Below, one piece after another: positions 2,126 through 48,043 of a stretch of 64,000 bases of DNA (position 1 is the first letter of the stretch; each line of letters opens with the position of its first letter). The position numbers and the translations under genes are program-made. This stretch comes from an uncultured Clostridium sp. (GTDB taxonomy: Bacteria; Bacillota; Clostridia; TANB77; CAG-508). The stretch spans positions 87,139 through 151,138 of the forward strand of contig CAOJXR010000002.1 of the NCBI GenBank assembly GCA_948465565.1, read 5' to 3'. A model generated the notes under the pieces. That model was not told where the DNA came from. It saw only the letters and a list, made by a program, of their open reading frames with translations, and ran no database searches.

Positions 2126-2164
2126 AATGCCTCCAACGTTATTATTCTAGCATTTTTGCTCTTT

Positions 2165-2215
2165 ATTGTAAAGAAAAATCAGCTGATTGCTTGAGTCAGC
2201 TGATTTCGTATCAAA
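2165..2215 (-). terminator. Rho-independent terminator (minus strand) just upstream of prmC
   Basis: Inverted repeat aatcagctga..tcagctgatt followed on the minus strand by TTTTTCTTT. Confidence 0.45.
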
Positions 2216-2219
2216 ATAA

Positions 2220-2410
2220 AAATGCCCCACATTAGCCGTCATGTAAAGAATTTTTATGGACCTGTCCTAAAACAGGTGGGTGCCGTCCTAAATATTCCTG
2301 GGTTTCTTACATAAATGCAAGCATACACGCCATACTCAGAGAAATCTGGCTCCCTTCTCCAAAACTTGTAGGTTCTAAAAACTCTGTCAAAAACGCACCA
2401 TGCAGGGAAG
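2220..2410 (-). ncRNA. Candidate structured ncRNA or non-coding GC-rich island of unknown class
   Basis: About 190 nt of clearly elevated GC with no ORF above 30 aa on either strand. It contains local stems (acctgt..acaggt; ggtgggtgcc) and is immediately followed on the minus strand by the terminator at 2165..2215. Confidence 0.25.
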
Positions 2411-2695
2411 ATTATTAACTATTTACTTACTATGTTTATATAATACCATAACTGTTTTTGAGTTTCAAATTCTTAATTTCTCGTTTAATATTATTTAATT
2501 GATTGTATTTATATTTTTCTCTTTTTTTCTTCTATTATTCTAATTTATTTATGCAATTTTAATATTTGATTTTTTTAATTTTATATTGTATATTAAAAGG
2601 TGTAGAGAATTTAAAAAAGACATTTTTTGACAAAATATACAAAAAATCCTAATGAAATTTATTCATTGGGATTTTATTATTATAATTGTTATATA

Positions 2696-3577
2696 TTAAA
2701 ACTTTGGAACATATTTTTCTTCGTCCTCTTCTAGTTCTTGCATATAGCCATTTTCTATCCCAAGTTCATATAAATAGTTCTCTATTTCTTCATATTCTTG
2801 TTTGGTTAATTTTCTATTTATTTCTTTATCTTCGCATGCTTTGTATGTTGGAAAATATTGTGCCATTAAGCTTATAGTTATGTCGTTTGGCATATTATCT
2901 TTTATCCATTTTAATATGTTTTTTGAATTTTGAATATTATTTGGTAATACTAAATGTCTTATTATCATTCCTTTTTTTAATAAGCCATTCTCATCATATT
3001 CATTTTTTCCAACTTGTTTATACATTTCTAATATTGCCTTTTCAGTTACTTCTCTATAATCTTTTATTCCAGATAATCGTAAGGCTAAATTGTTATCATA
3101 GTATTTGAAATCAGGTAAATATATATCAATATATCCTTCTAACTTTTTTAAAGTTTCTATTGTTTCATACCCACTTGTGTTATATAAAATTGGAATTTTT
3201 AATCCTTGCTTTTTAGCTAACTTAATCGCTTCAATTACATGTAATACATATGGCGTTGCGGTTACTAAGTTTATATTATTTGCTCCTTTTTGTTGCTCTT
3301 CTAAAAATATCTCTGATAGTCTTTCTATTGTGATTTCTTCTCCCTTACCTTCACAACTTATTTTATAGTTTTGACAGAATTTACATTTTAGATTGCAATT
3401 ACTAAAGAATACTGTTCCAGAACCTTTTTCACCACTTATACATGGCTCCTCATCATAATGTAGTGAGTATAATCCTAATTTTATTTTGCTTCCTGCTTTA
3501 CATTTACCTAGTTCACCTTTGTTTCTATTTATTTGACATTGTATTGGACATAATTTGCATTTTTCTAATTCTTTCAT
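2696..3577 (-). CDS. Radical SAM protein, PflX-like (pyruvate formate-lyase activating enzyme homolog)
   Basis: 293 aa with an N-terminal Cys cluster (CKLCPIQC) and the radical-SAM motif CNLKCKFCQN. Confidence 0.7.
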   Translation of the reverse strand: MKELEKCKLCPIQCQINRNKGELGKCKAGSKIKLGLYSLHYDEEPCISGEKGSGTVFFSNCNLKCKFCQNYKISCEGKGEEITIERLSEIFLEEQQKGANNINLVTATPYVLHVIEAIKLAKKQGLKIPILYNTSGYETIETLKKLEGYIDIYLPDFKYYDNNLALRLSGIKDYREVTEKAILEMYKQVGKNEYDENGLLKKGMIIRHLVLPNNIQNSKNILKWIKDNMPNDITISLMAQYFPTYKACEDKEINRKLTKQEYEEIENYLYELGIENGYMQELEEDEEKYVPKF

Positions 3578-3660
3578 TTTCTCACCTATTGCATATTATA
3601 TATTTTTTTATCTTTAAAATCAATCTGCTAAGAATATCTACCTTTTTATAAATAGCAAAA

Positions 3661-3690
3661 GCCCGGCTGACAAGTCAGCCGGGCCGGAGC
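3661..3690. terminator. GC-rich hairpin terminator downstream of the 3698..4012 gene
   Basis: Perfect stem gcccggctga-caag-tcagccgggc flanked by T-rich sequence on both strands. Confidence 0.55.
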
Positions 3691-3697
3691 CTTTTGC

Positions 3698-4012
3698 TCA
3701 GATATACTGTGCGTGATGCCGGAAAGCATACCACTTGCCGCCTTCCTCGAAGACACCTTCGTGGCTTCCGCCAGGGCAGTACCAGCCATCGGTGATATAC
3801 GGGTGGCTGTCTCTGATTTTCTTCAGCTCACTACGAGCCTCATCTTCATTATCGAAGCCAGCAGAGCTGATGAAAGTTTCTTCATAGACCTTTTTCAAGG
3901 TCTGAAGTTCATTGCGCAGGGTTTTAGGCAGGGGGCTGTCATACACCAGCTTCTGTACAGCCGACCGTGTTGTCGCCTCTTGAACATAAGTCCAGGTCAT
4001 CTTGTAAGCCAT
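3698..4012 (-). CDS. Hypothetical 104-aa protein in a high-GC island
   Basis: ORF MAYKMTWTYVQEATTRSAVQKL.. with AAGGAGG 7 nt upstream of the ATG. GC is far above the surrounding sequence, and the gene has its own terminator. Confidence 0.5.
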   Translation of the reverse strand: MAYKMTWTYVQEATTRSAVQKLVYDSPLPKTLRNELQTLKKVYEETFISSAGFDNEDEARSELKKIRDSHPYITDGWYCPGGSHEGVFEEGGKWYAFRHHAQYI

Positions 4013-4078
4013 AATAGCTCCTCCTTAAAATTAGTACACTATTATTATAACATGTATTTACATAATTTTCAATCTTTG

Positions 4079-4438
4079 TTATTCTCTGAACTCTTTTGCT
4101 AATTTACTAATTGCTTTACTTTCTATTCGTGATACATATGATCTAGAAATTCCATAAATGTCAGCAACTTCATTTTGAGTAAGTGGTTTTTCGTTATTAA
4201 GACCAAATCTCAAAATTAAAATTTCTTTTTCTCTTGGTTTTAGCGTTGTTTCCATTTTCTCGTATAATTTCTTTTGCTTTAGTTTTAAATCAATTGCGTC
4301 TTCTATACTTCGCTCGTTGTTTTCTAGTATCTCTTGTAATGTAATGACGTTATCATCTTTATCTTTTCCAATTGGTTCGTTTAAATATACTTCTGAATTT
4401 AATTTTTTTGAGTTTCTGAAGAACATTAAAATTTCGTT
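4079..4438 (-). CDS. sigK: RNA polymerase sigma-K factor, C-terminal fragment downstream of the intervening element
   Basis: The translation ..EILMFFRNSKKLNSEVYLNEPIGKDKDDNVITLQEIL..ILRFGL..GISRSYVSRIESKAISKL matches sigma-K regions 3-4. The in-frame codons upstream of the annotated Met read IANEIL. Confidence 0.8.
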   Translation of the reverse strand, partial: NEILMFFRNSKKLNSEVYLNEPIGKDKDDNVITLQEILENNERSIEDAIDLKLKQKKLYEKMETTLKPREKEILILRFGLNNEKPLTQNEVADIYGISRSYVSRIESKAISKLAKEFRE

Positions 4439-6126
4439 TGCAATTCTCCCCTGTTGGAAAAATCATCTTTAATATTTCTTGCACCTATAAAATTAATAGT
4501 TATATTCTCTCCATCACTTGTAACTGAACTAATTAGTAACTTTATCATATTTCTTTTTGTATTTAAGTCTAATGTATCAAATGATGTAAAATATGTATCA
4601 AATATGTTAAGTAACATATTTGCAGTTTCTGTATCATTTATTTCATCGTAATCTGTATTAGTTAATTCTTTTATTCTTTTTTCTATTTCTGCATTTGCTT
4701 GTTTTAATCTTTTTATTTCTTTTGATAGGTCATCTAACAATGAAATATCAACATATTTAATTTTGTCTAGTAATAAAGAAATGTCATTCTCATTTTTCTT
4801 TAATATTGTTTTTAAGCTTTTTAGCTCTTCACTGTTTTGGTTATTTTCATTAAAAGATTTTGATGCTATATTTTTTAGCGCCTTATAAAATTTAGAATCT
4901 GGCATTGCTAGTTTCTTTATTTCTTCCATTACTAAATCATCTGCTTCTAAACCATTAATATTTTTACATTGACATTTTTGCTTTTTACTTTTATCTTTTA
5001 ACTCACACATATAATCAAATACTCTACGACCATTGCTGTCTACTGTTTTATTTTTTAATTTTGCTCTCATAAATGAACCACAATGAGAACATCTTAATAA
5101 TCCAGATAATAGAGCATTACTTGTGCTTGGTTTTCTATATTTCATATCACGGTTTCTATTTAATAAATTTTGTACTTCTACCCATTCTTTACCTGAAATA
5201 ATGCCTTTATGTTTTCCTACAGCAACTATCCATTCTGTTATATCTTTCTTTTCTACCATATTATTTGACCCAGTTTGTTTAGTTTTATTATATACCATTA
5301 AACCTTGTGTTCCATTAAATTCTTTTTCATCTGCATATATTTCAATTCCAAAGTTCTTAAAGTATTCTAATGTATCTTCATCTGCCATTGCATAAACAGG
5401 ATTAGTTAGAATATTAGTTAATGCCCATCTCGTATATAATTTTCCATTCTTTGTTTTTATATCGTTTTGAATTGTATAAGTTTCTAATTTTGTTAATGAT
5501 TTTAATTCTAAAAATTTATGAAATAAACTTTTAGAAATGATAATTTCATCATCAATAGGAGATAATTTATATAATTTTCTTTTCTTATTATCTATAGTAA
5601 TATTTTCTATTTGTTCAGATTTAAAACCTGTAGGAGTTGTACCTCCTAACCAACGACCAGTTTTGGCAAGCTCAATCATATTATCTCTTATACGTTCTGC
5701 AATAGTATCTCTTTCTAATTGTGCAAATACTGAAATCATAAACATCATTGCTCGTCCACTCGGAGTTATATTTTCTATACTTTCTGTAGCTGATAAAAAG
5801 GAAACATTATAATTATCAAATTCATTTACTAAGCTACTAAAGTCGGATACATTACGACTAATTCTATCTAATTTGTAAAAAACGACAGTGTCGATTTTTT
5901 TATCTTTAATGTCTTTTAGCATTCTTTGAAATGATGGTCTATTAGTATTATATCCAGTATATCCTTCATCTTCATAAATAATAACGTCATTATCTAAGTC
6001 AATATTGTCAAATGTTAATTCTATTTTTCTTTTACAAGCTTCTATTTGATTATGTGTGCTTTCTCCTTTACCTGTGAATTTTGATTTACGTGAGTATATT
6101 GCTTTTTTTCTAGTTTCTTTTACCAT
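4426..6126 (-). CDS. Large serine recombinase (SpoIVCA-like)
   Basis: 566 aa with an N-terminal resolvase domain (AIYSRKS catalytic Ser region, VVFYKLDRISRN), a recombinase domain and a C-terminal zinc ribbon (CSHCGS..CQC). Its stop codon overlaps the sigK junction. Confidence 0.85.
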   Translation of the reverse strand: MVKETRKKAIYSRKSKFTGKGESTHNQIEACKRKIELTFDNIDLDNDVIIYEDEGYTGYNTNRPSFQRMLKDIKDKKIDTVVFYKLDRISRNVSDFSSLVNEFDNYNVSFLSATESIENITPSGRAMMFMISVFAQLERDTIAERIRDNMIELAKTGRWLGGTTPTGFKSEQIENITIDNKKRKLYKLSPIDDEIIISKSLFHKFLELKSLTKLETYTIQNDIKTKNGKLYTRWALTNILTNPVYAMADEDTLEYFKNFGIEIYADEKEFNGTQGLMVYNKTKQTGSNNMVEKKDITEWIVAVGKHKGIISGKEWVEVQNLLNRNRDMKYRKPSTSNALLSGLLRCSHCGSFMRAKLKNKTVDSNGRRVFDYMCELKDKSKKQKCQCKNINGLEADDLVMEEIKKLAMPDSKFYKALKNIASKSFNENNQNSEELKSLKTILKKNENDISLLLDKIKYVDISLLDDLSKEIKRLKQANAEIEKRIKELTNTDYDEINDTETANMLLNIFDTYFTSFDTLDLNTKRNMIKLLISSVTSDGENITINFIGARNIKDDFSNRGELQTKF

Positions 6127-6269
6127 TATTTCGTTCCTTTCCTACATGTGATATTTGTAATAGTTTATCACTTTTAACTTAAAAAGTCTATAAAAATAGA
6201 TGCAAATATTAAATTTACATCTATTTTCTCGTAATTTCTATTTAACAATTTCATGAAATAACATAATTA

Positions 6270-6575
6270 TTATTTTAATTTTTCAATTTCTCTCATAGCT
6301 TTCATTCCTAGGTAGTATCCTAAAGCAATATAATAATTTGTAATTTCTGAATTATATCTAGTATATTTATTTAATATTTTTCTCTGTGATTCATCAAAAT
6401 AATCCAGTAAATGAATTTCAAGTTCTCTAAATTCATCTTCCAAATCATTGTATTGGCGATTTCTTCGTAACACCTTCATATTATCGATTACTTTTTCATT
6501 AATTAGTTTTATATCTAATTCTGAAAAAATAAAACTAGGCTTTTTTTCTTCTTCCATAATAAATTCCTTTCTCAA
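6270..6575 (-). CDS. Hypothetical protein (element cargo)
   Basis: 101-aa ORF with no recognisable motif. Confidence 0.35.
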   Translation of the reverse strand: MRKEFIMEEEKKPSFIFSELDIKLINEKVIDNMKVLRRNRQYNDLEDEFRELEIHLLDYFDESQRKILNKYTRYNSEITNYYIALGYYLGMKAMREIEKLK

Positions 6576-6676
6576 ATTATATGATTTATTTTGTTTTACG
6601 CATACGCTTTGTAGGTGTTTGTGACTAAAAAAATAATATTTACTATATAATCACACAAACTATAGTAGGTGATGTA

Positions 6677-6895
6677 ATGAAATTTATTGCAAATGATTAT
6701 ACTCCTAAAGAGATAATTCGTATAATTAGAGAATGGACTGAATTAACTCAAAAAGAATTCGGTAAAACTATAAATCGTAGCGAAAAAGGTATTCAAGCAT
6801 TTGAACTTGGTACTAGAAATTATGATATGGCTACTTTAATTCAAATTGCTAATACGCATGGTATAAAAATAATTATAGAAAAGAGAGAAAAATAA
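6677..6895 (+). CDS. Small XRE-family HTH regulator
   Basis: 72 aa with a helix-turn-helix pattern (LTQKEFGKTINRSEKGIQAFELG). Confidence 0.55.
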   Translation: MKFIANDYTPKEIIRIIREWTELTQKEFGKTINRSEKGIQAFELGTRNYDMATLIQIANTHGIKIIIEKREK

Positions 6896-7040
6896 TAATG
6901 TTTTTCTTTCTTTTTTTATATATTGTTATTTGCAAAATATTATTTACTTTTATAATGCAACATCTACGTTGTCTATAATACCACATAATTATTATAAAAT
7001 CAACCTATAATAATTATTGAACGTTGGGAAAAGATATATT

Positions 7041-7298
7041 ATGAAAAATACAATAAAATATAAAGGCAAGCTTAATGCTATTGGTAATAAAATAAAAGAT
7101 TATCGAAAATTGAATAATATGACACAAAAAGCACTTTCAGAAAAGTTACAATTATATGGTATTGACTTAAATAAGAACTCTTTACAGAAAATAGAAAAAG
7201 GAACTAGAATTATAAAAGAATATGAACTTGCTGCTTTTTGTAAGGCATTTGATGTTTCTGCTGACTTATTATTAAAGGATTGTATTGATGAATTATAA
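7041..7298 (+). CDS. XRE-family HTH regulator
   Basis: HTH motif MTQKALSEKLQLYGIDLNKNSLQKIEKG. The ATG at 7041 is preferred over the upstream TTG at 7017. Confidence 0.55.
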   Translation: MKNTIKYKGKLNAIGNKIKDYRKLNNMTQKALSEKLQLYGIDLNKNSLQKIEKGTRIIKEYELAAFCKAFDVSADLLLKDCIDEL

Positions 7299-7349
7299 TA
7301 GTTACTGTTTATATAAGATAAAAGAATTTATGCTTTTATCTTTTTATTT

Positions 7350-7715
7350 TTATATAATTCTAGCAATTTCTTCAATTATATTTTTATTAGTAAAAATATA
7401 TTCATCATAATCAAATCCAAAAATCCTTTTAAAATTCTTAACTGTTTTTTCTTCTATCCTATGGTCTATTGCATATTTTATAGTCATCTTTATTTGTGAT
7501 ATATTAAATGATTTATAGTTCTCTTTAATTAATGAGTATATGTTATCAATAATTATAAATTCTGTATTGCTATTATAAACATATTTGATTGCTTCTATTA
7601 GTAATATTGTTCCCTTGTGACTAGTGTTTAATCCCAAAGAACGTAGGATATCTCTAATTAGAATATCTTGTTCATTTTTTGTTTTTAAATTACTTTCATA
7701 TTGTACACTTTCCAT
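7350..7715 (-). CDS. Stand-alone Spo0A C-terminal DNA-binding-domain-like protein
   Basis: The 121-aa protein aligns along its length with the Spo0A effector domain: SHKGT~HIKGY, LLIEAI~YLREAI, VYNS~VYND, IFGF~LFGY. It has no receiver domain. Confidence 0.6.
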   Translation of the reverse strand: MESVQYESNLKTKNEQDILIRDILRSLGLNTSHKGTILLIEAIKYVYNSNTEFIIIDNIYSLIKENYKSFNISQIKMTIKYAIDHRIEEKTVKNFKRIFGFDYDEYIFTNKNIIEEIARII

Positions 7716-7810
7716 CTCTTCCCTCCATAAAAATTTATATCAAAAAGAAATTATTTAATTGTATCTATTCTTTATGTTATTAATATACCAACTTTATGTA
7801 AACATTGCAA

Positions 7811-7950
7811 AATAATAAAATCTGCACTACATGCATTGAAATATGCGTGTAATGCAGATTTTACTTTGGTTTTCAGCTGTTCTATAATATAAATTACTAA
7901 TATCTTATATAAATAAAAAAATATTGCGTGCTACGCAGATTTAAAAATAA
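7811..7950. promoter_or_regulatory. Cluster of related inverted and direct repeats (operator-like) plus a hairpin terminator
   Basis: aaaatctgcact..tgcgtgtaatgcagatttt forms a hairpin. A near-direct copy attgcgtgctacgcagattt occurs about 75 bp downstream. Confidence 0.3.
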
Positions 7951-8557
7951 AACATGGGAACTAAACCAATGAATAAAATTCCCATGTTCTACATTTTAGG
8001 TCTTAATCCCTAAAATATATAAATTAATCCAAACTATTGCGAGTAGTTTAGAGTAATTATTAAAATTATAATTGATATTTCTATAAATATCAATAGATTT
8101 AGGGGGAATTGTTCCCCCTTCAGCTTGAATGGCTTATATTTCATCAACGATGTTATATACTGGAAATCCTCCTGGACTTCCACCATCTAGGAAAATTCTG
8201 TTTTTCATTGGTTTAATTTCCTTATATTAAAATCTATCAAGTAAAAATTCAATATTAATTAATACAGGAAATAAACCAATAGTTTAAAATCTTGTATATA
8301 TAAAAAATCCAGGCACTCGCAATGCCTGAATATCATTATTGAACATCAAGCATTACGCTTGTGGAATGGATTAATTAATTAAGATTTTAATGCCATTCTT
8401 TTTACTATATTTAGTTATTTTTATTATACTACTTTTAATCAATATTTTCAAATTTTATTCGCTGTGTTTGCTGATATATCTTGTTTTTATTGATACTTTA
8501 CATAAAAAATGTTATAATTAATATGTAATTTTTATTAAAGAAAGTGGTGGTATACTT

Positions 8558-9274
8558 ATGTTTAATAAAAAAGATTTTGGTATAAAAATTAAAGTTGCTC
8601 GAAAATCCAGAGGTTTAAGTCAAGAAAATCTGGGAAAAGCAATAGGAAAAAATGCTACAACAATAGGAAGATATGAATCTGGAGAAATTATGCCAGACGC
8701 TGAACAAATTAGCTTGATTTGTGATGAATTAGGAATAGCTGAATATGAATTATTTGATACCTCTAGTAAAATATTAAATAAAGAAAATAATAGAAATCCT
8801 TTTAATACAAACAAGTTATATTTATTTTATAAAGCTTTTTATCCTAAAAGCAATAATTATAAAAAAGGGAAATTTATATTGGATATAATTGAAAAACCTG
8901 ACTGTTGTAAGGTAAATTTTGTAGATTATAAAACTAACAAAATTTATTTATCTGGATATATGATGTCTGATAGTAATGTTGCTATATTCATTTTTGAAAA
9001 TTATAAAGAAAACAATTTAAGACTGGAGGTTTCGGAAATTATATTAAATATTGCTAGAGGAACAAACACTCTTATGTTAGGTAGTTTTCATTGTACAAAT
9101 GGAAATTATGAACCTTCTGTTAGACGTTGTATGATTTCCACAGAGGATATTGATTTTTCTGATGAGATGTATAGAAAATTAGAAATTACTGATAGAGAAC
9201 TTGAAGAATTAAAAGCAAAAAGTATATGGTATGTTGATGTCGTTGATAAATATGATTTTGAAGATAATATTTAA
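8558..9274 (+). CDS. XRE-family HTH domain protein with unknown C-terminal domain
   Basis: N-terminal HTH (LSQENLGKAIGKNATTIGRYESGE); the 238-aa C-terminal part has no motif I recognise. Confidence 0.55.
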   Translation: MFNKKDFGIKIKVARKSRGLSQENLGKAIGKNATTIGRYESGEIMPDAEQISLICDELGIAEYELFDTSSKILNKENNRNPFNTNKLYLFYKAFYPKSNNYKKGKFILDIIEKPDCCKVNFVDYKTNKIYLSGYMMSDSNVAIFIFENYKENNLRLEVSEIILNIARGTNTLMLGSFHCTNGNYEPSVRRCMISTEDIDFSDEMYRKLEITDRELEELKAKSIWYVDVVDKYDFEDNI

Positions 9275-21973: not shown

Positions 21974-21982
21974 CTCTTAATT

Positions 21983-38517: not shown

Positions 38518-38656
38518 GTATAGCTATGTGTAATACTCAAGTAAAAATAATTATATTTTAGTATGCTAATACAGAATAAAAATGGCTAGACTTTACTTTA
38601 TGTAAACTTTGTGTTATAATATTTCTGTATTACTTTTATATGGAGGTTTTAGTATC

Positions 38657-38908
38657 ATGCATAGTTTTACATTTGATACAACCCGGCTCAGCTGTCTGCC
38701 CCTGACCAACGTAGACTCTGATGAGTTCTTTAAGTTGGTTAAGGAGGCTGACGTTGGTCAGCAGCATTCCTGCTTCAGCGACCCTTACAAGCTCCTTGAC
38801 AAGCTTCACTCCAGTGGATACGTCGCCGCTGGTGCTTTTCTCAAGGATTCCCTGATTTCCAGATGCAAATACCACTCACTCTTTCCACACCTATCGTGCA
38901 CGCTTTAA
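38657..38908 (+). CDS. Truncated GNAT-like N-terminal fragment (paralog of the next gene; possible pseudogene)
   Basis: TGGAGG 9 nt upstream of the ATG. FTFDTTRLSCLPLTNVDSDEFF parallels FFIDTERIRCQPFIKDDIDSF of the downstream gene. High GC. Confidence 0.4.
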   Translation: MHSFTFDTTRLSCLPLTNVDSDEFFKLVKEADVGQQHSCFSDPYKLLDKLHSSGYVAAGAFLKDSLISRCKYHSLFPHLSCTL

Positions 38909-38914
38909 GGAGGT

Positions 38915-39460
38915 ATGCGCATGAACAGAAATTTCTTTATTGACACTGAAAGGATTCGGTGCCAGCCTTTTATCAAGGATGACATTGATTCTTTCAACGG
39001 TATCATCAAGGTAGATCCTGAGGTTCGCAGATTCTTTACCTTTGGGAGCCTTCTGTCGTTCTTTGTGAGGCTCCATGAGTATGACTGTTGCCCCATGGTT
39101 GTCTATCGCCATTTGCCTGGCATGTCCACTATCGATTCCCAGATGATTGGCTATATCAATGGATATGACTACGGCAACAGTGAGATGCTTGTTGAATTCT
39201 TCGTTGCTAAGGATTTCCGGCGGAACAAGTATGCGGCAGAGATGGTGCATGCGTTCACCAATTATTTGCGCTTTTCTGGCTACTTCACTTTCAGGTTTCA
39301 CGTTGAGGAAGAGAACGCCGCCTGTATTGCTTTTATGGAGCATATTGGCGCTGTTCACTGCATCGACGAAGACTTTGAAGATGAGGAAATTCCCGGAAAG
39401 AAGAGCCAGTACCGCATGTACAAGCTCACCCTGAAGAAGTGGGTGCGCTGCGTAGAGTAA
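38915..39460 (+). CDS. GNAT-family N-acetyltransferase (RimJ/RimL-like)
   Basis: 181 aa with FIDTERIRCQPF, DPEVRRF and a GNAT core (IGYINGYDYGNSEMLVEFFVAKDFRRNKYAAEMVHAF). High GC. Confidence 0.6.
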   Translation: MRMNRNFFIDTERIRCQPFIKDDIDSFNGIIKVDPEVRRFFTFGSLLSFFVRLHEYDCCPMVVYRHLPGMSTIDSQMIGYINGYDYGNSEMLVEFFVAKDFRRNKYAAEMVHAFTNYLRFSGYFTFRFHVEEENAACIAFMEHIGAVHCIDEDFEDEEIPGKKSQYRMYKLTLKKWVRCVE

Positions 39461-39493
39461 ACCTCAAAAAACTTTATAATCCTTGAATAGGAA

Positions 39494-39540
39494 ACCCCAG
39501 GAGCCAGCTAATTAAAGCTGGCTCCTGGGGTTTTTTCTTT
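39494..39540 (+). terminator. Rho-independent terminator
   Basis: ccccaggagccagct-aattaa-agctggctcctgggg followed by TTTTTTC. Confidence 0.65.
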
Positions 39541-39608
39541 CTAGATAATCATCTTAATTTGAAATTTTCAGAGTTCTTATTTTAGAGCTCTATAATATCA
39601 GTTTGCTG

Positions 39609-40397
39609 TTAGTATGTTGTATCTAACACGAATTGTCCTGCTTTTTCTGCTTTCAATATTGTGAGAGTTTCACAGATATCATACAGAGATACTTTGCCAT
39701 CAAAAGCTTTTGTCTCTAATATTGACGGAATACCTATAGCAGCATAGTGACTCCCATTGATTTCAATGGACGCTTCTTTTTTCAAAAATTCTTCCATTGT
39801 GAATTCATATCCATAACTTCCTTCTATTCGGTTATGAATTCCTCTCATCTTCAGCTCCTCGTCTGTTAAAATGTCAACTATTTTATCTGCGCTCGTATCA
39901 ATTTTTAAAACGCGGATATCTTGGTTAAATAGCGTAGCTGCAAACATTACTTCAGATGTCTTAAAGAATATTTCTTTGTATTCTGCTGGTATTTCGCTTA
40001 TCTCGTCAATTAGTTGCTGAATGGCGTCACGCTCCTTCTTTAACTGCTGATTTGTTTGTTCTAGTTCCTCAATCCTTTCTTTCTGTGAATTTTGAGTTGT
40101 CTCTGATGAACCTAAAGCATTTTGTAGATTCAGAAGTGTTTGGTTCTGTTCATTGAGTTTTTCCTGCAAATCCATGATTTCCTTATCTTTGGAACCGATT
40201 GTTTCCATACAGGAATCCAGCGTTTTTTGCAGATTAGCTGCAGTATCTTTGTGGCTTTTGACTTGGTCTTTGAGAGACACATTTTGTGCACAAAAGACGA
40301 CTGAAATTACGAAGGTAAACGCAAACATCAGTCCTAGCAGAATGCACACCTCTGTTCTCTCAGAAATCCGATTCTTGTCCATTTTGCAAACCTCCAT
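39609..40397 (-). CDS. Membrane-anchored coiled-coil protein (hypothetical)
   Basis: TM near the N-terminus and a long Q/E/K-rich coiled-coil (LQEKLNEQNQTLLNLQ). Confidence 0.45.
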   Translation of the reverse strand: MEVCKMDKNRISERTEVCILLGLMFAFTFVISVVFCAQNVSLKDQVKSHKDTAANLQKTLDSCMETIGSKDKEIMDLQEKLNEQNQTLLNLQNALGSSETTQNSQKERIEELEQTNQQLKKERDAIQQLIDEISEIPAEYKEIFFKTSEVMFAATLFNQDIRVLKIDTSADKIVDILTDEELKMRGIHNRIEGSYGYEFTMEEFLKKEASIEINGSHYAAIGIPSILETKAFDGKVSLYDICETLTILKAEKAGQFVLDTTY

Positions 40398-40469
40398 TTA
40401 TATTTGGGATTTCTCCACTATTTTTAGTATACTCTATTCCTTGTTTTATGTCAACTCATTGCGTGGTTC

Positions 40470-40535
40470 GTGGAGCAACCCCCAAAACAAACGGAGCATC
40501 AGTGACTTTAGGCTGCTGATGCTCCGTTTGTTTTG
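40470..40535 (-). terminator. Long hairpin terminator downstream of leuS
   Basis: Stem of about 22 bp: caaaacaaacggagcatcag..ctgatgctccgtttgttttg. Confidence 0.5.
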
Positions 40536-40564
40536 TTCTTAGACTTTATAAAAGTCCTCTGTTG

Positions 40565-42988
40565 TTATTTTACTACTATATTATAAATTTTTCCTTTTAC
40601 ATAGATTTTCTTTATAACTGTTTTTCCTTCTAGTAATTTTGTTATTACTTCGTTTTCTTCTACTACTTTATCAATATCTGATTGTTCTATATCTTTTGGT
40701 ACAGTAACAGTTGTTTTTAATTTTCCATTTATTTGTACTGGTACTTCTATTACATCATCTATTGTTTTTGTTTCATCGAAACTTGGCCATGGAGTTTTAG
40801 CTATTTCAGTTTTTTCTCCTAGTCTTTCCCATATTTCTTCTGTCATATGAGGTGCAAATGGATTTAATAATTGTAAAAATGTTTTGTATTCAGCTTTGTT
40901 TATCTTCTTTGCTCTTGTGAATTCATTTACCATTGTCATGAATGTTGATACACACGTGTTAAACTTCATTTCTTCAATATCGTTTGTTATTTTCTTTATT
41001 GCTTTATGTATCATTGATTCGAATTCTTTTGAATATTCATCGCCTTCTACTAAGATTTCTTGCATATTCCATATTCTATCTAAGAATTTGCTACATCCAC
41101 GAATGCTTTCCATTGACCATGGTGCTGTTTGGTCAAATGGTCCCATAAACATTTCATATACTCTAAAGCTGTCTGCCCCAAAATCTCTTACTATATCATC
41201 AGGATTTACTACATTTCCTTTTGATTTAGACATTTTTTCTCCGTTGCTACCTAATATCATTCCGTGTGATGTACGTTTTTGATATGGCTCTTTTGTTGGG
41301 ACTTTTCCTATGTCATATAGGAACTTGTGCCAAAATCTTGAGTATAATAAGTGTAGTGTTGTATGTTCCATTCCTCCATTGTACCAATCAACTGGTGACC
41401 AATATTCTAACGCTTCTTTTGATGCAAATTCGTTTTCATTATGTGGGTCCATATAACGTAAATAATACCAAGATGACCCTGCCCATTGTGGCATTGTGTC
41501 TGTTTCACGTTTTGCTGGTTTTCCACAATGTGGGCATGTTGTATTAATCCATTCTGTTTGTTTTGCAAGTGGTGATTCTCCGTTTTCGCCTGGCTCATAA
41601 TCTTGTACTTCTGGTAATTTTAGTGGTAACCTGTCTTCTGGTACTGGAACCCATCCACATTCTTCACAATATACCATTGGTATTGGTTCACCCCAGTATC
41701 TTTGGCGTGAGAATACCCAATCACGTAATTTATAATTTACTTTTCTTTTTCCTAATTTGTTTTCTTCTATATATTTAATTATTTTTTCTATTGCTTCTTT
41801 TACTTGCAATCCATCTAACATTCCTGAATTCACTAATATTCCTGTTTCTGTATCAGTATATGCTTCTTCTAATTCTTCTTGTTTTTCTGTTTCATTTTTT
41901 ACAATAACTCTTTTTATTGGTAGATTAAATTTCTTTGCGAATTCAAAGTCTCTTGTATCATGTGCTGGAACTGCCATTATCGCACCTGTTCCATATGTTA
42001 TTAAGACATAGTCTGATATCCAAATTTGCATTTCTTCGTTTGTTATTGGATTTATTGCTTTTATTCCTTTTATTTCTACACCTGTTTTTTCTTTGTTTAA
42101 TTCTGCTCTTTCAAAATCTGATTTCATTGATGCTTTTTCTTGATAGTTTCTTACCTCTTGTAAATTGTCTATTTTTTCTTTATATTTTTCAATTAGTGGA
42201 TGTTCTGGTGATATAACCATATATGTTGCTCCATATATAGTGTCTGGTCTTGTTGTATAGATTAGAAGGGTGTCATCTGTGTCTTTTATTTTAAAGTTTA
42301 CTTCTGCTCCTTCGCTTCTTCCTATCCAGTTTTTTTGTTGTGCTTTTATTTTATCAAGGAAGTCTAAATCATCTAGGTCATCAATTAATCTTTGTGCGTA
42401 TTCTGTGATTTTTAGCATCCATTGTGATTTTTCTTTTTGTACTACTGGACTTCCGCATCTTTCGCAAACACCGTTTACTACTTCTTCGTTTGCTAGTCCT
42501 ACTTTACATCCTGTACAGAAGTTTATTGGCATTGTGGCTTTATATGCTAGTCCTTTTTTGAATAATTGTATAAATATCCATTGTGTCCATTTATAGTATT
42601 CTGGATCTGTTGTGTTTACTTCTCTTGACCAATCAAATGAGAATCCTAGAGATTTTAATTGCTCTCTAAAATGATTTATATTGTTTTCTGTTGTTATTTT
42701 TGGATGTACATGATTTTTGATTGCATAATTTTCTGCTGGTAGTCCAAATGCATCAAATCCTATTGGAAATAATACATTATATCCTTGCATTCTTTTCTTT
42801 CTTGCAATTATATCTAAGGCTGTATAACTACGTGGATGTCCTACATGGAGTCCTTGTCCTGAAGGATATGGAAATTCTATCAGTCCAAACCATTTTGGTA
42901 ATGTGTAATCATTTTTTGCATAAAATGTTCCTTCCTTCTCCCATTTTTTTTGCCATTTTTGTTCTACTTCTTTAAAATTGTAAGACAT
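40565..42988 (-). CDS. leuS: Leucine--tRNA ligase
   Basis: 807 aa with the HVGHP (HIGH) motif, KMSKSKGN and an editing domain. Confidence 0.9.
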
Positions 42989-43248
42989 GTTTTTTCCTCC
43001 ATTTCTGTTTTACTCAAGATTTATTTCTTAAGTTTTTTGCAATGTTTGTATTATATAACAACTTACGCCATTTTTCAATATGTTGAATTACAAAAAGCTA
43101 TAATAGCAAATATTATTGTATATCTCTCATCTTGCAATATTATGTAAATTAGTGTATAATATATTTATTCTCGCAGGTACAGCGAATCTAATGTACCATT
43201 TAGTAATTGTCGCTAATCTGTTAGTGACTTACTGAGTAAGGAGCTTCT

Positions 43249-43455
43249 ATGAATCGCACTGTTCTCTATGAATGTCCCAATTGTTCCGCATATGGGCTCA
43301 TCCCTATCAGCAAGGATGCCGGCATTTTCGTCTTGTGTTCTTCCTGCGGAGGAAGTGGACACCGTCAGCCTCGGGAGGGTGAACTTCGGTTTCCTTTCAT
43401 CGAGTTTACTGGACTCAAGCATTTGGACGGTGTTAATAAAATTTTGCCCAGATAA
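43249..43455 (+). CDS. Small zinc-ribbon protein (68 aa) in a high-GC island
   Basis: AAGGAG 5 nt upstream of the ATG. CPNC..(16 aa)..CSSCGG fits a four-Cys zinc ribbon. The opposite-strand ORF 43213..43500 is rejected. Confidence 0.45.
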   Translation: MNRTVLYECPNCSAYGLIPISKDAGIFVLCSSCGGSGHRQPREGELRFPFIEFTGLKHLDGVNKILPR

Positions 43456-43525
43456 TTTTCTGGACTGCTTGTCCAAAACGGCGTTTGGTGTTCTTCGCAA
43501 CTCATAGCTCAGTTAAAGCTTATTC

Positions 43526-43566
43526 AAAAAGGGCTCCCTTTTTTCGGAAAGGGAGCCCTTTTATAT
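43526..43566. terminator. Bidirectional hairpin terminator (zinc-ribbon gene / rplT)
   Basis: aagggctccctt-ttttcgga-aagggagccctt with T-runs on both sides. Confidence 0.6.
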
Positions 43567-43587
43567 CTATTTTCGCAAATTTTTCAT

Positions 43588-43938: not shown

Positions 43939-43972
43939 TTATTATTCACTCCTTTTCCTAGATTCATTCTAA

Positions 43973-44173: not shown

Positions 44174-44189
44174 AATAAATTTCTCCTTT

Positions 44190-44696
44190 CTATTTCTTAG
44201 CTAGTATTAAAAACATACTTTTACCTTCTAGATGAGGTGCTTTCTCAATGTTTGAAACATCAGATAATTCTTCTGCAAATCTATTAAGAATTCCCTCTCC
44301 TATTTTTACATTGTTAAGTTCTCTACCTCTAAATCGTACTGTGAATTTTACCTTATTTCCAGACTCTAAGAATCCTCTTGCATTTTTGCATTTGAAACCA
44401 AAGTCATGTTCTCCAATATTTGGAGTAACTCTTATTTCTTTTGTTTCAACTGCTTTTTGATTTTTTCTAGATTCTTTTTCTTTTTTAGCTTGTTCAAATT
44501 TGTACTTTCCATAGTTCATTATTTTTGCAACTGGCATTTCTGGGTTTGGTGAAACTAGTACTAAATCTAAATCTCTGCTTTCTGCCAAGTCAACTGCTTC
44601 TGCAGTATTCATCTTTCCTAATTTTTCTCCAGTTTCGCTAATTACGTTTACTGAACTAAATTTTATTTGCCTATTGATAGGTAATTCTTGTTTTAT
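44190..44696 (-). CDS. infC: Translation initiation factor IF-3, with a non-AUG (ATA) start
   Basis: The annotated ATG ORF begins mid-domain ([22 protein letters not shown]). The in-frame upstream codons read [28 protein letters not shown], matching the IF-3 N-domain. GGAGG lies 9 nt upstream of an ATA codon at 44696..44694. Confidence 0.75.
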
Positions 44697-44912
44697 AGTA
44701 AAACACCTCCGATTTTTAGTATTTCATTTTTCATAAAAAAATGACTTGTTATAAAACAAGCCAATTCGCATAAAAATAACATTAAAATATATATTATTTT
44801 TTTGACCTTTTGCCTTAATTAGCTTAGGTGAGAACTGACTTCTTCTTTAAAACATACATATAATAACATCTTTTCTAGGTTTTGTCAACAGTTTAATTAT
44901 AATTTTTGACTA

Positions 44913-45689
44913 TTATGGAATTATTCTTTTACCATTGTTTACTATCCATTCTCCACTTTCAAAATCACTATATTGAGTTTCAAATCTAACATCAAATCGT
45001 ATATCTATGTATCCATTGTAATCTAGGTAAATGGCTTTATATATATTTTCTAAAGTATCAAAATATATTCCTTTTTCTTTTGGAAATAGTTGTTCTACTT
45101 CTTTTTTTGATAAATTTGTTTCAATATCTATTTGTAGCGTTGGTCTATTAGTATATTTATCATATACTAATTCAAATCTTGGCTCACGTATAATATTAAA
45201 ATTAATTATGTCTTTTTCATATTCCTCTTTGGTTGTTGGTAATAAAAATGGCCATGGCTCTCCTGTTGGATAACTATATATATTACTAATAGTTGCTAGA
45301 TATTTTAATAGTTCTTCCCATTGTTCTTTTCTAAAAATACTTGTTGGTAAATTAATCCCTGTATGATCAATTCTTTTTATATGATTTTTTAATCTGTTTG
45401 CTATATCTTTTGCTTTTATTCTTTTTGTTTCATAAAGTTCATTCTTGTATTCTCTATTGCCTACCAATAAATTTAAGTACTTATCATTGCCTATATCTAT
45501 TTGTATATCTTTGCTATTTGTATCCAATTTAAATATTGTTTTTGGTTTTAATTTTGATGATATTATATGAATTTCATTGTTATTAATTATTTCGACATAT
45601 GATAAATTTTTAAATAATGTTATTAATAAGTTAAACAATTCTATATTTTCTTCATTTTCTGGAAATATGTATTCTATTTTTTCTAGCAT
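44913..45689 (-). CDS. Hypothetical protein
   Basis: 258-aa ORF with no recognised motif. Confidence 0.4.
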   Translation of the reverse strand: MLEKIEYIFPENEENIELFNLLITLFKNLSYVEIINNNEIHIISSKLKPKTIFKLDTNSKDIQIDIGNDKYLNLLVGNREYKNELYETKRIKAKDIANRLKNHIKRIDHTGINLPTSIFRKEQWEELLKYLATISNIYSYPTGEPWPFLLPTTKEEYEKDIINFNIIREPRFELVYDKYTNRPTLQIDIETNLSKKEVEQLFPKEKGIYFDTLENIYKAIYLDYNGYIDIRFDVRFETQYSDFESGEWIVNNGKRIIP

Positions 45690-45846
45690 TTTCTCCTCCT
45701 AAAACATTTTTAGTATATATTAAAAATATATTTTTATCAATTAATTTCGTATTGACTTTTTTGTATGTTTCCTTTACGCTGTTTATATATTATTTTAATT
45801 AATAAATAATATAGTTTAAATAAAAATTTTATATGGAGAATATATT

Positions 45847-46512
45847 ATGATATTAGCAATAACGCAAAGGTATGAAAGAATTGATAATGATGACCATTTT
45901 AAAGAGAGTTTTGGTTTAAATAAGTATTTTAAAGATATTTTTGAGGATTTAGATGTATTATTGTTTCCTATTTCTTCTACAACTCAACTTGAAAAAGTAG
46001 TTGACATCTGTGATGGTTTATTAATAACTGGTAGGTCAATTGATATAAACCCTAAATATTATGGTGAACAAGCTATACATCAAACAAATATATCAAATTT
46101 TTATAACAAAGAAGATGAATTAGATTTTCTTCTTATACAATCTTTTTATAAAGCTAATAAACCAATTTTAGGTGTTTGTGCTGGGATTCAAGCTATTAAT
46201 GTGTGTTTTGGTGGAAGTTTATATCAAGATATTCCTAATCACACAAGCCAAAGTTCTATAAATATGCACAATATTAAATTAGAAAAAAATTCTTTTTTAG
46301 AAAAATGTTATGGAACAGATTCTATGAAAGTCAACTCTTTTCACCATCAGGCAATAAATAGGGTTGCAGATAATTTTAAAGTAACAGCTATTAGTGATGA
46401 TGGTATTATAGAAGCAATTGAATTTAATAATATCGTAGGCGTTCAATGGCATCCTGAGAAAATGAATGATATCAAATTTTTTAATGAATTTATTAAATTA
46501 TGTATGAAGTAA
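45847..46512 (+). CDS. Class I glutamine amidotransferase-like hydrolase (gamma-glutamyl-GABA hydrolase / peptidase C26 family)
   Basis: GVCAGIQ nucleophile elbow and a VQWHPE catalytic His-Glu region. Confidence 0.7.
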   Translation: MILAITQRYERIDNDDHFKESFGLNKYFKDIFEDLDVLLFPISSTTQLEKVVDICDGLLITGRSIDINPKYYGEQAIHQTNISNFYNKEDELDFLLIQSFYKANKPILGVCAGIQAINVCFGGSLYQDIPNHTSQSSINMHNIKLEKNSFLEKCYGTDSMKVNSFHHQAINRVADNFKVTAISDDGIIEAIEFNNIVGVQWHPEKMNDIKFFNEFIKLCMK

Positions 46513-46559
46513 TAAATATATTAAATATTTGTTAAATTACTGTATATGGTGGCTTTTAT

Positions 46560-46675
46560 TTGTAATTTACATAAAATTATGGTATAATATAGTTTGCAAG
46601 TTGGTTATTGCACAACCTAGTATCAAAAATACGGGGGAGTGCAATTCCTCCGTAAAATTTTAGGAGGAATGAATT
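46560..46675 (+). promoter_or_regulatory. Promoter (TTGTAA-17-TGgTATAAT) and structured leader with an SD-sequestering hairpin
   Basis: An extended -10 lies at 46580..46588. aattcctcc (46643..46651) is complementary to the ggaggaat SD (46663..46670). attgcac/gtgcaat supplies an alternative pairing. Confidence 0.35.
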
Positions 46676-47869
46676 ATGTCAGTATTGACAGCAAAACCAC
46701 AATTTCTGTATCCCTGCTCTCGGCAGTTCCCGTTTGACGAGGTTGCCGAAAAGATTGTAAGGGCTATGGAAAAACGCAACTGGGAGGTCCCTGGAATTTC
46801 GGTTGACTTCTACACCTACGGCTCCGGCGAAGCAAAATACAAGATGGTTAACAACATCGTGGGCGATGACTTCAAACTGCATTTTTGTCGTTCTCAGGGT
46901 CGGCTTGACAGCAGGAATGTGGATATCGCGGCGCTTGACAGCGTCTGTATTCCGAAGGAAATTCTCCAGGTTTTTTCCGATGAGTCTGGTCCGAGATATT
47001 ACCTCTATGTAGGTAATGACTGGGAAGGCGACAAAGCTTGGTTCATGAATTCCATCAAGGTTAATTCCAAGCTTAATAATGAGCCTCGGAGATATCTGAT
47101 GTACAAGGGCAATGCCTGCAGAGGACGTGCCACAAATCTGGTTTCTGACAACGATATCCATCGTGAATACTCGCCTGAGGGTGACGAGCCTGTCCGTATC
47201 AACCTTCAGCATAAGTTCAATGAATTCACAGCATGGCTGGAGGAACATGTTCTCAATTATATCCTTAGCTTTCCTGAAGCAGACATCCTCCTTCCTGAGC
47301 CTACTGTGGAGCTTATTCCCTACCAAGGTCCTTGGCCGACTGTCTTCAGCGTATGCAACTGGCGGAATGCTCAAAGGTTGGAGAAGGGGAAGAAAAACCC
47401 TATGGATTTGTGTCCTGCAGATCGCCATGCATCTATTGGCGATGGACATCGTTTGGTTTCTCTTGGTGTGAGCGGTGTTCTGGAGATAGCTCATGATGGC
47501 TTTATCTGGTGTGACACTAACCAAGAGATTACCTTCTGCTCTAGGGCAAGCGATCTTCTGGATGACGTCTATAGCTCGTGCACTCCACTTTTTGGTCAAA
47601 GATACCTTGTTGCAATAAGACTCAAATATTCCAATGGCGTGTATGTGGCGGATAACTCCAAGTTTGACGAAACTCGCCATCAGCTTTTTGAGACTATTGC
47701 ACCTCGTGACCGTCTGACAGATGAAGAGCTCGACAGCGCCTACGCCGCCAGAGGAGCCACAATCGTTCCTATCACCGAATATAAGGGCGGATATAAGGAG
47801 CCCATCGTGCTCATCAATCGAGAATTGGACTTCGATGAGATTGAGTGGCTTATTGAAATGAAACGGTAA
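46676..47869 (+). CDS. Hypothetical 397-aa protein in a high-GC island
   Basis: TAGGAGG 7 nt upstream of the ATG and a strong terminator downstream. No recognised motif. The antisense ORF 46679..47680 is rejected. Confidence 0.55.
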   Translation: MSVLTAKPQFLYPCSRQFPFDEVAEKIVRAMEKRNWEVPGISVDFYTYGSGEAKYKMVNNIVGDDFKLHFCRSQGRLDSRNVDIAALDSVCIPKEILQVFSDESGPRYYLYVGNDWEGDKAWFMNSIKVNSKLNNEPRRYLMYKGNACRGRATNLVSDNDIHREYSPEGDEPVRINLQHKFNEFTAWLEEHVLNYILSFPEADILLPEPTVELIPYQGPWPTVFSVCNWRNAQRLEKGKKNPMDLCPADRHASIGDGHRLVSLGVSGVLEIAHDGFIWCDTNQEITFCSRASDLLDDVYSSCTPLFGQRYLVAIRLKYSNGVYVADNSKFDETRHQLFETIAPRDRLTDEELDSAYAARGATIVPITEYKGGYKEPIVLINRELDFDEIEWLIEMKR

Positions 47870-47885
47870 AGTTTGTCATCTACTG

Positions 47886-47935
47886 GCAGCCGGAGTCCCC
47901 TAGAGAATATTCTCTGGGGGACTCCGGTCCTTTTA
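47886..47935 (+). terminator. Rho-independent terminator
   Basis: ccggagtcccc-tagagaatattctct-gggggactccgg followed by a T-run. Confidence 0.65.
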
Positions 47936-48043
47936 TTATTTTTTAATCAATATATTTAGTGTATCTTATCTATTTATTATGTATATTTGTATTTTTGTTT
48001 AATATTATTTATTGTATAATTTTATTAGAAATGGAGAAATTTA

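Follow-up and report, generated by a model that had tools for sequence, protein, structure and literature searches.

Short GC-rich gene islets fixed in the AT-rich chromosome of an uncultured spore-forming Clostridia species and their possible lateral origin

The morons of temperate phages (Juhala/Hendrix) are units of one or two genes with their own promoter and terminator and a deviant composition, lying between unrelated genes, and the lateral ORFans or genomic islets of the type described by Daubin and Ochman are short, fast-evolving and taxonomically restricted genes of atypical composition, classically AT-richer than their host. An analogy is offered by the bldA/TTA control of Streptomyces, which acts on a subset of genes written with a codon that is rare in the genome. 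In the pdif/Xer modules of Acinetobacter plasmids, one or two genes lie between Xer sites, and the XerD arm of the Firmicute dif site resembles TTATGTAAA, a sequence that recurs in the DNA described here. This DNA, hereafter the window, is a stretch of 64,000 nucleotides (nt) from contig CAOJXR010000002.1 of an uncultured Clostridium sp. (assembly GCA_948465565.1), in which an earlier note, made from the letters alone, had listed seven short GC-rich islands and called them compositionally foreign or engineered-looking. Our analysis supports the compositionally foreign character of islands 2 to 7 and indicates that they are old residents. Their most likely origin, to which we assign about an even chance, is that these islets, together with a further GC-elevated gene beside island 5, are old, laterally derived cassettes acquired independently of one another.

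The compositional contrast on which this proposal is based is real. Against a window GC content of 28.9% (200-nt windows: mean 0.289, standard deviation 0.062), all seven islands are GC spikes, with 42.9, 46.5, 37.5, 52.7, 46.1, 45.6 and 46.0% GC in order of position and 200-nt peaks of 0.40-0.58. The clean discriminator is the GC content at third codon positions (GC3), which is 0.157 +/- 0.026 in native genes and 0.36-0.60 in the island open reading frames (ORFs). Other stretches of moderately elevated GC, namely a gene of 1037 amino acids (aa) at 21983-25096, leuS and spoVAD, have high GC at the first and second codon positions and a native GC3, and the ribosomal-protein genes have a GC3 of 0.10-0.17. 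The codon analysis that the earlier note had called for bears out its impression of a non-native composition, as codon usage is radically different: from native genes to islands, the share of TTA among leucine codons falls from 61% to 1%, that of ATA among isoleucine codons from 60% to 4% and that of AGA among arginine codons from 79% to 22%, while CGG rises from 0% to 27%, CTG from 1% to 26% and AAG from 17% to 73%. The native third-position composition of A.52, T.33, G.08 and C.08 becomes A.13, T.32, G.24 and C.32 in the islands, with A-ending codons dropping from 52% to 13% and C- or G-ending codons rising from 16% to 56%. The shift is strand-asymmetric, in that A at third positions (A3) is reduced and T (T3) is kept. 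Because GC-richness also extends into the non-coding 3′ untranslated regions (UTRs) of islands 3, 4 and 6 and into the remnant of a truncated GNAT gene in island 5, the composition belongs to the whole segment and not to intact codons alone.

That several islands show long ORFs on both strands, which had been suspected to be an artifact of composition, was confirmed and explained by the same codon preferences. In each of the six island ORFs examined (from islands 2, 4, 5, 6 and 7), the antisense frame in register with the codons is uninterrupted because TTA, CTA and TCA codons are nearly absent, numbering together 5 in 925 island codons versus 8.6 per 100 in native genes. Overlapping antisense genes were considered and rejected, since sense third positions, which are antisense first positions, take most of the changes and the antisense frames are interrupted in relatives.

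Read directly from the sequence, islands 2-7 are autonomous units, each with a promoter, a Shine-Dalgarno (SD) sequence, one or two small ORFs and a terminator (Table 1). The promoters are predicted to be AT-rich and sigma-A-like, with a TTGnnn element, a spacing of 17-18 nt and an extended -10 element, TGnTATAAT, and the terminators consist of a GC-rich hairpin followed by a T-run. The strength attributed to these terminators is evident from hairpin energies of -24 to -38 kcal/mol, which lie at or past the native extreme, regions downstream of native genes averaging -8.5 and reaching -25.9 kcal/mol at the strongest. The SD sequences, described as near-consensus, are indeed strong, at -10 to -12 kcal/mol in six of nine ORFs, but fall inside the native range, in which the median duplex energy is -7.2 kcal/mol and 32% of genes are at or below -9. 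As built, each unit could be expressed without read-through into its neighbors, the islets being set among sigK, radical-SAM, mini-RNase III, spoVA, leuS, infC-rpmI-rplT and GDPD genes. The island ORFs are genuine genes: for islands 4, 5 and 7, translation is supported by the pattern of substitutions over codon positions, by indels that keep the frame and by conserved SD-ATG contexts. Differences at codon positions 1, 2 and 3 number 8, 8 and 23 among the orthologs of island 4, which also show in-frame indels and loss of the antisense frames (three lineages), and 57, 46 and 136 in island 7; the GNAT gene of island 5 has a similar pattern. The islets encode lineage-restricted proteins, of which only the GNAT can be assigned to a family, this being the one island product that matched any family in Pfam, PHROGs, NCBIfam and PADLOC.

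The islets are natural, are fixed in the species and are not engineered. Many independent gut-metagenome assemblies (ENA, JGI, Logan and NCBI) contain exactly these proteins and this DNA. In the assembly collection, 34-385 blocks index the exact island proteins and 292 index a flanking native gene, and the exact 66-aa protein of island 3 was found on 404 contigs. Among comparison loci from strains, sister species and more distant lineages, which are designated by L-numbers, each strain contig examined carries all of the islands at 99.3-100% DNA identity, island 7 excepted; island 1 is 100% identical across all strain contigs, and island 6 is 100% identical in all strains and in L129. Presence/absence polymorphism, which the earlier note had proposed as a check, was not observed for any listed island in the strain contigs or sister lineages, and only the gene beside island 5, which encodes a membrane-anchored coiled-coil protein, is absent from L129. 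Island 7 varies as alleles, with A (that of the window) and B (78% identical) found within the species and C (80% identical to A and 89% to B) in a close relative; the three alleles have a GC content of 0.465-0.473. Allele B lies in a replacement tract at about 44700-51200, in which L035 and L037-L039 have the 78% identical island 7 together with a GDPD gene of 93% identity and are missing both the 258-aa and Peptidase_C26 genes (44913-46512) and the 95-aa and 449-aa genes (49034-50873); these missing gene pairs are AT-rich, and the surrounding genes are at least 98.8% identical.

Syntenic islets in relatives, which the earlier note had itself named as evidence that would count against its reading, argue against recent insertion, with position largely conserved for islands 2, 4, 5 and 6 and roughly so for island 7. 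Island 4 occupies the same place downstream of the mini-RNase III gene in L040 and L041, where it has 52.6% and 48.0% GC between flanks of 27-29%. In L129, whose LeuS is 96% identical at the amino acid level, islands 5 and 6 again lie between spoVAEB and leuS and between leuS and rplT, respectively. The 179-aa GNAT protein of L129 has 55% aa identity to that of the window, and its gene differs at 0.43 of third positions, as compared with 0.16-0.23 in the flanks, with a GC3 of 0.58 versus 0.60; L129 as a whole is a mosaic of identical and diverged segments. In L133 and L138 (radical-SAM protein 77% and 84% identical), the radical-SAM gene again has island 2 upstream of it, with 51% and 46% aa identity; a GC3 of 0.39 stands there against 0.09-0.14 in the flanks. 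The island 7 family occurs in 18 species genomes, all of 26-34% GC, and in each the GC of the gene exceeds that of its flanks by 5-13 points; its contexts vary, and it lies near Veg-SipL-YunB or S9-L13 in three of the 18 (L024, L025 and L031). In relatives the islets evolve much faster than their neighbors, yet remain GC-rich.

The earlier suggestion that the islands share something holds for four of their promoters and is not supported for the insertion mechanism proposed with it. The promoters of islands 2, 5, 6 and 7 contain, in the spacer between the -35 and -10 hexamers, TTATGTAAA or its complement TTTACATAA, which together make up a quasi-palindrome TTTAYRTAAA with its center ~11-12 nt ahead of the -10 hexamer. 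Six exact copies of this element occur in the window versus 3.7 expected by chance, four of them in these island spacers and a fifth in the promoter (8490-8518, +) of a helix-turn-helix (HTH) gene at 8558-9274, inside a skin-like element. In 877 kb of low-GC relatives, 29 distinct instances stand in a promoter context versus 0.3 per permuted 9-mer (~100-fold), and the 300 nt downstream of those 29 have 36.6% GC versus 28.3% in controls. Members of the island 7 family account for about half of the instances, and the remainder lie upstream of non-homologous small unknown proteins with a GC3 of 0.21-0.45. No such element was found in the promoters of islands 3 and 4 and of the coiled-coil gene. 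The element may be an operator, and we infer that islands 2, 5, 6 and 7 are co-regulated by one DNA-binding protein. A reading of TTATGTAAA as a dif/Xer site was rejected on the basis of the lack of a XerC arm, of a second copy at the far end and of enrichment with mismatches.

Island 7 also has a leader RNA, which hardly varies among 15 copies of the gene in 13 genomes, even though their protein products are only 54-78% identical to that of the window. Two hairpins are predicted, GGUU[AUUGCAC]AACC and ACGGGGG[AGUGCAAUU]CCUCCGU, with a possible 6-bp loop-loop (kissing) pairing of UUGCAC with GUGCAA. All 17 leader pairs are intact in 15 distinct sequences, with compensatory changes in two pairs, and in the alternative fold of minimum free energy UUCCUCC pairs with the SD sequence (z -3.7). 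The leader had no match in Rfam, a focused scan giving nothing above 22 bits or with E below 0.85, and a covariance model placed it, in 970 kb, only upstream of the 397-aa family encoded by island 7. It is probably a new SD-sequestering, riboregulator-like element without an Rfam family.

According to the explanation that we favor, individual cassettes would have been acquired laterally, on separate occasions that preceded the divergence of the species from its sisters, and would have settled in intergenic gaps between housekeeping genes as insulated transcription units, thereafter evolving fast as lineage-restricted proteins. In islands 2, 5, 6 and 7, the TTTAYRTAAA element near -24 would be read by one DNA-binding protein, and in the island 7 leader the CCUCC arm may pair with either the upstream GGGGG run or the SD sequence, turning translation on or off. 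A foreign origin accords with the observation that island 7 is out of compositional equilibrium and is losing GC. At its third positions, changes from strong to weak bases (S>W) number 39 and those from weak to strong (W>S) 20, as compared with 12 and 17 in the native GDPD neighbor, whose per-site rates of 0.353 (S>W) and 0.080 (W>S) imply an equilibrium GC3 of 0.19. Such parsimony polarization is biased at high divergence, giving an implausible result for the native mini-RNase III control, and is informative only for island 7 versus GDPD; for the GNAT gene, per-site rates that are almost the same for S>W and W>S are suggestive only, being subject to this bias. Traces of gain or movement are also found at single loci. 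L129 lacks the coiled-coil gene, its promoter and the new leuS terminator, leuS there abutting the GNAT terminator (window 39541-40565 versus L129:2627-2731), and at the coiled-coil junction of the window the final ~20-25 nt of leuS are repeated in degenerate form. The varied settings of the island 7 family in 18 genomes, the tRNA genes close to it and its two alleles of 78% identity in one species are likewise signs of mobility. LeuS-anchored metagenome loci, which were compared as possible empty sites, were 70-80% identical and non-syntenic. A search for a plasmid source gave only distant relatives of 30% identity from Bosea, one of them a homolog of the 397-aa protein (30% identical along 97% of its length) at 5965-7347 of plasmid pANAM02 (692 kb) of Bosea sp. 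ANAM02 (L141), which lies among hypothetical genes between topoisomerase III and type IV/type II secretion system (T4SS/T2SS) ATPase genes, a context that we take as a hint of mobility.

Several findings weigh against an old lateral origin. The island 2 homologs of the two other lineages have a GC3 of 0.39 and 0.58 versus 0.09-0.17 in their flanks, at a core-protein identity of 62-84% at which synonymous sites are probably saturated. The rates from GDPD imply that a GC3 excess decays under the native bias ~3.7 times faster than neutral synonymous divergence proceeds, and neutral amelioration should therefore have erased the excess of island 2. GNAT orthologs with 31-33% nucleotide difference likewise keep a GC3 of 0.56-0.62 and a GC content of 0.45-0.49. 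All of the islands are fixed within the species, and the short direct repeats that the earlier note had proposed to look for at the junctions were not above chance. Nor was an integrase found among the neighboring genes annotated by domain look-up. A common insertion mechanism is not supported, there being no integrase, no shared junction repeats and no family in common among the products, which are unrelated as judged from family scans and by eye, without an all-against-all comparison. The search for a phage source, by tblastn against phage genomes and four IMG/VR scans (leader pattern, 397-aa, 104-aa and GNAT), gave no match except a 24% relative in a 675-kb contig. A GC-rich donor was not found, as every homolog with readable DNA lies in a genome of 23-34% GC and the only GC-rich relatives are the 30% identical ones on Bosea plasmids. 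Finally, the families are tiny, with 6 (island 4) and 10 clusters among 5.8 billion and just 21 (island 2) among 1.84 billion representatives. Integron gene cassettes were also considered and rejected, in view of the promoter and intrinsic terminator that each unit has for itself, the dispersal of the units and the lack of a neighboring integrase by domain look-up.

The rival reading is that the islets are instead a resident gene class, inherited vertically, in which selection on transcripts or translation keeps A-poor, C- or G-ending codons and an amino acid composition of intermediate GC in a TTTAYRTAAA regulon. We regard this as a serious rival, although less probable than lateral origin; it might take the form of escape from an AU-preferring RNase or of dependence on rare C34 or G34 tRNAs in the manner of bldA and TTA. 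It is consistent with the retention of a GC-rich island 2 in synteny in three lineages at 46-51% protein identity, with neighbors at 62-84%, and with the near-equal GC of island 7 alleles and GNAT orthologs at 11-33% nucleotide divergence. The loss of A3 with T3 kept is the pattern expected of RNA-level selection, the equilibrium GC3 implied for the islets is 0.35-0.57 versus 0.19 for native GDPD, a promoter element is common to non-homologous genes, all known homologs are in AT-rich genomes, and rare-codon tRNA genes stand beside two members, tRNA-Glu(CUC) beside island 4 and tRNA-Lys(CUU) beside the L030 homolog of island 7. On the other hand, the equilibrium estimates come from a polarization that is biased and that gives an implausible equilibrium for the mini-RNase III control, and the best-conditioned case, island 7, shows a net loss of GC. 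Ribosomal-protein genes do not share the codon preference, the island 7 family lies in different contexts from genome to genome, the mechanism is hypothetical, and the promoter element is missing from islands 3 and 4 and from the coiled-coil gene. More tentative still, and in our view rather unlikely, is the broader proposal of an undescribed class of insulated orphan genes with GC-rich coding maintained over genus-level time, a codon-dialect regulon with many members on TTTAYRTAAA, a possible coupling to rare C34 tRNAs, such as the tRNA-Glu(CUC) beside island 4, or to escape from an AU-specific RNase, and one new leader RNA.

Other explanations have far less to recommend them. GC-biased gene conversion at hot spots of recombination, or a mutational bias that is local and strand-symmetric, could be invoked for the exchanged tract around island 7 (island 78%, GDPD 93% and the rest at least 98.8% identical), the mosaic structure of L129 and the GC-richness of non-coding parts of islets, but biased conversion would deplete both A3 and T3, islet boundaries coincide with transcription units, and the GC3 effect of +0.35-0.45 far exceeds, to our knowledge, any reported for bacterial biased gene conversion. 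We judge this reading improbable; the strand asymmetry excludes GC-biased gene conversion and leaves either a donor legacy with recurrent replacement or transcript/translation selection. Even less credible is that the islets are structured non-coding RNA genes like 6S with ORFs that are artifacts of composition. Island 1 is exactly that, GC-rich islands of AT-rich genomes are typically RNA genes, long ORFs occur on both strands, and gene callers often missed the small ORFs of islands 4 and 6. However, full-window scans gave no Rfam match at E<=1 in islands 2-7, the whole window yielding only 6S and one tRNA at the gathering threshold and at E<=1; the codon patterns, indels and SD-ATG contexts support the coding status of islands 4, 5 and 7; the antisense frames break in relatives; and the 397-aa product has an AlphaFold predicted local distance difference test (pLDDT) score of 93.8. 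An engineered construct or assembly chimera, suggested by the cassette-like look of a consensus-like promoter, SD sequence and perfect terminator around a recoded ORF, can be practically dismissed, being refuted by the distribution in natural samples, with independent assemblies from different projects, natural allelic variation and sister-species orthologs.

Table 1. Positions of the islets and of associated features in the window (CDS, coding sequence)
Feature	Position	Strand	Parts	Product, composition and energies
Island 1	2220-2411	-	6S (SsrS) RNA gene; Rfam RF00013	
Island 2 unit	3650-4072	-	promoter 4044-4072 (TTGAAA-ATTATGTAAAT-..-TGTTATAAT); SD AAGGAGG; CDS 3698-4012; terminator 3650-3694	104 aa; CDS GC 0.50, GC3 0.58; SD -11.1, terminator -26.2 kcal/mol
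Skin-like element	4426-13227	-	~8.8 kb, interrupts sigK	
Island 3 unit (weakest)	13720-14377	+	possible promoter 13720-13746; ORF 13785-13985; ORF 14024-14278; terminator 14339-14377	66 aa (hydrophilic), 84 aa (membrane-like); GC3 0.36-0.37 (longest ORFs over both genes); SD -8.2 and -5.7 (second ORF weak), terminator -24.5 kcal/mol
tRNA-Glu(CUC)	16685-16759	-	own promoter 16774-16804	ARAGORN and Rfam tRNA, 63.3 bits
Island 4 unit	16832-17257	-	promoter 17229-17257 (TTGAAA..TGTGATATAAT, without TTATGTAAA element); SD AAAGGAGGA; CDS 16910-17194; terminator 16832-16868	94-aa orphan
Island 5 operon	38592-39540	+	promoter 38592-38620 (..TTTATGTAAA..TGTGTTATAAT); ORF 38657-38908; GNAT 38921-39460; bidirectional terminator 39492-39540	83 aa, GC3 0.57; 179-aa GNAT, GC3 0.60; terminator -38.2 kcal/mol
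Additional islet, membrane-anchored coiled-coil gene	39609-40454	-	CDS 39609-40397 or 40382; promoter 40426-40454	257-262 aa; gene GC 37%, GC3 0.35
Island 6 unit	43132-43562	+	promoter 43132-43160 (TTGCAA-TATTATGTAAAT-..-TGTATAAT); 85-nt 5′ UTR; CDS 43249-43455; terminator 43526-43562, shared with rplT	68 aa; GC-rich 3′ UTR; terminator -26.2 kcal/mol
Island 7 unit	46560-47934	+	promoter 46560-46588 (TTGTAA-TTTACATAAA-..-TGGTATAAT); leader RNA 46601-46667; CDS 46676-47869; terminator 47885-47934	397 aa; CDS GC 0.473, GC3 0.50

The original list of seven islands stands for islands 2-7, among which island 3 is the weakest, and requires two corrections. Island 1 is an ordinary, native structural RNA and not a gene islet, its match to the 6S RNA family scoring 79.7 bits versus a gathering score of 46.4 (E 4.5e-14) over model positions 1-187 of 187, and the list had missed the coiled-coil gene adjoining island 5, which has a separate leuS terminator beside it at 40484-40533. 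The island 2 product has no match in Pfam, PHROG, NCBIfam or PADLOC, and neither product of island 3 matches a family. In island 5 the 179-aa product matches the Pfam acetyltransferase family Acetyltransf_3 at 1e-07, and the 83-aa first ORF is a GNAT paralog shortened by a ~260-nt deletion, with a remnant that is still 48% GC; the first-gene GNAT is intact (173-175 aa) in L129, L136 and L137. A toxin-antitoxin arrangement of the TacAT type (RHH/DUF1778) was rejected for this operon, given that the upstream ORF is the truncated paralog and that no antitoxin was matched in PADLOC or Pfam. The product of island 6, which is antisense to its neighbors between leuS and rplT, contains CxxC...CxxCGGSG and is zinc-ribbon-like, with weak zinc-ribbon matches only. 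The 397-aa family of island 7 comprises 253 homolog clusters, every one unnamed or annotated as 'hypothetical protein', and its predicted structure has no significant fold match, only weak ones that hint at NAD-dependent ADP-ribosylation. L031 carries two full tandem copies and one remnant of this family. Relatives also have GC3-rich genes of their own (0.35-0.62), non-homologous to the islets, with strong SD sequences and no Pfam match, at L031:1755-2192, 9382-9723 and 14223-14915 and at L074:6777-7619 and 8605-9909.

The gene content of the host, including SpoVA, SpoIIID, SipL, YunB, Veg and RecN, identifies it as an uncultured spore-forming Clostridia species. Its sigK gene is split by the skin-like element, the ORF at 13227-13625 matching SigK profile positions 9-117 of 227 and that at 4079-4426 matching positions 115-226. 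The element carries at one end a large serine recombinase (4426-6126; Resolvase, Recombinase and Zn_ribbon_recom domains), and further encodes a Mob_Pre relaxase, a RadC/DUF3846 protein and several HTH proteins. Island 2 lies between the sigK 3′ half and the radical-SAM gene, and island 3 lies upstream of the sigK 5′ half in divergent orientation; because both flank composite sigK outside the skin-like element, their interpretation as cargo of a mobilizable element was rejected. Upstream of infC-rpmI-rplT, at 44748-44853 (-), there is a sub-threshold match to the L20 leader (RF00558, 29.1 bits versus a gathering score of 58.7) in the expected place.

The tRNA-Glu(CUC) gene, the sole tRNA gene found in the window, is immediately downstream of island 4, itself downstream of the mini-RNase III gene, and is an unusual one for a genome of 29% GC. 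Of the glutamate codons, 56% are GAG in the islands versus 12% in native genes, although a link between this tRNA and the islands is speculative; in L041, the ~220 nt downstream of the island 4 ortholog, where the contig ends, contain no tRNA. At loci of the island 7 family, six of eight tRNA genes lie within ~400 nt of the 397-aa family gene, and tRNA genes are seen near it in four relatives (L030:6367-6442, L024:9527-9709, L029:11406-11587 and L032:9574-9661), among them the tRNA-Lys(CUU) of L030. Such adjacency could reflect an integration hot spot or a rare-codon link.

If the islets are old lateral acquisitions, the case is an ordinary one. Its main lesson would then be that the GC spikes of an AT-rich genome can include both RNA genes and foreign ORFs, and that any ORF antisense to such a spike is artifactual. 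Should it be true that A3-depleted coding is maintained across genera, this would contradict standard amelioration and imply a second codon dialect in one genome, for which the promoter element and the rare-codon tRNA neighbors provide concrete handles. In either case, the clade-wide promoter-spacer motif and the leader RNA are testable regulatory elements in uncultured, common gut bacteria.

A literature search for comparable cases gave nothing relevant, and the described systems resemble the islets in part only. Like phage morons, the islets have, at the sequence level, their own promoter and terminator around one or two genes whose composition differs from the surroundings, but they lie between chromosomal housekeeping genes, with no prophage and no match to PHROGs or phage genomes, and are fixed and syntenic. 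Like ORFans and genomic islets, they consist of short, fast-evolving and restricted genes of atypical composition, although they are GC-richer than the host, no donor was found, they show no presence/absence variation within the species and their composition persists across genera. As in bldA/TTA control, they use genome-rare codons, and the tRNA for a rare codon stands beside one of them, but their entire codon usage is shifted rather than a single codon and the window has one tRNA gene. Like the islets, pdif modules comprise one or two genes and carry at one edge a sequence similar to TTATGTAAA, whereas the islets lack a XerC arm or second site, and their motif stands at a fixed distance from the -10 element inside the promoter. 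The island 7 leader resembles SD-sequestering riboregulators and riboswitches in being a conserved 5′ UTR with two hairpins, a CCUCC arm opposite the SD sequence and two alternative folds, and differs in having no Rfam family and in its restriction to the 397-aa family. The basic pattern of islets of atypical composition is known; new are their persistence, the promoter element that several share and the leader RNA of island 7.

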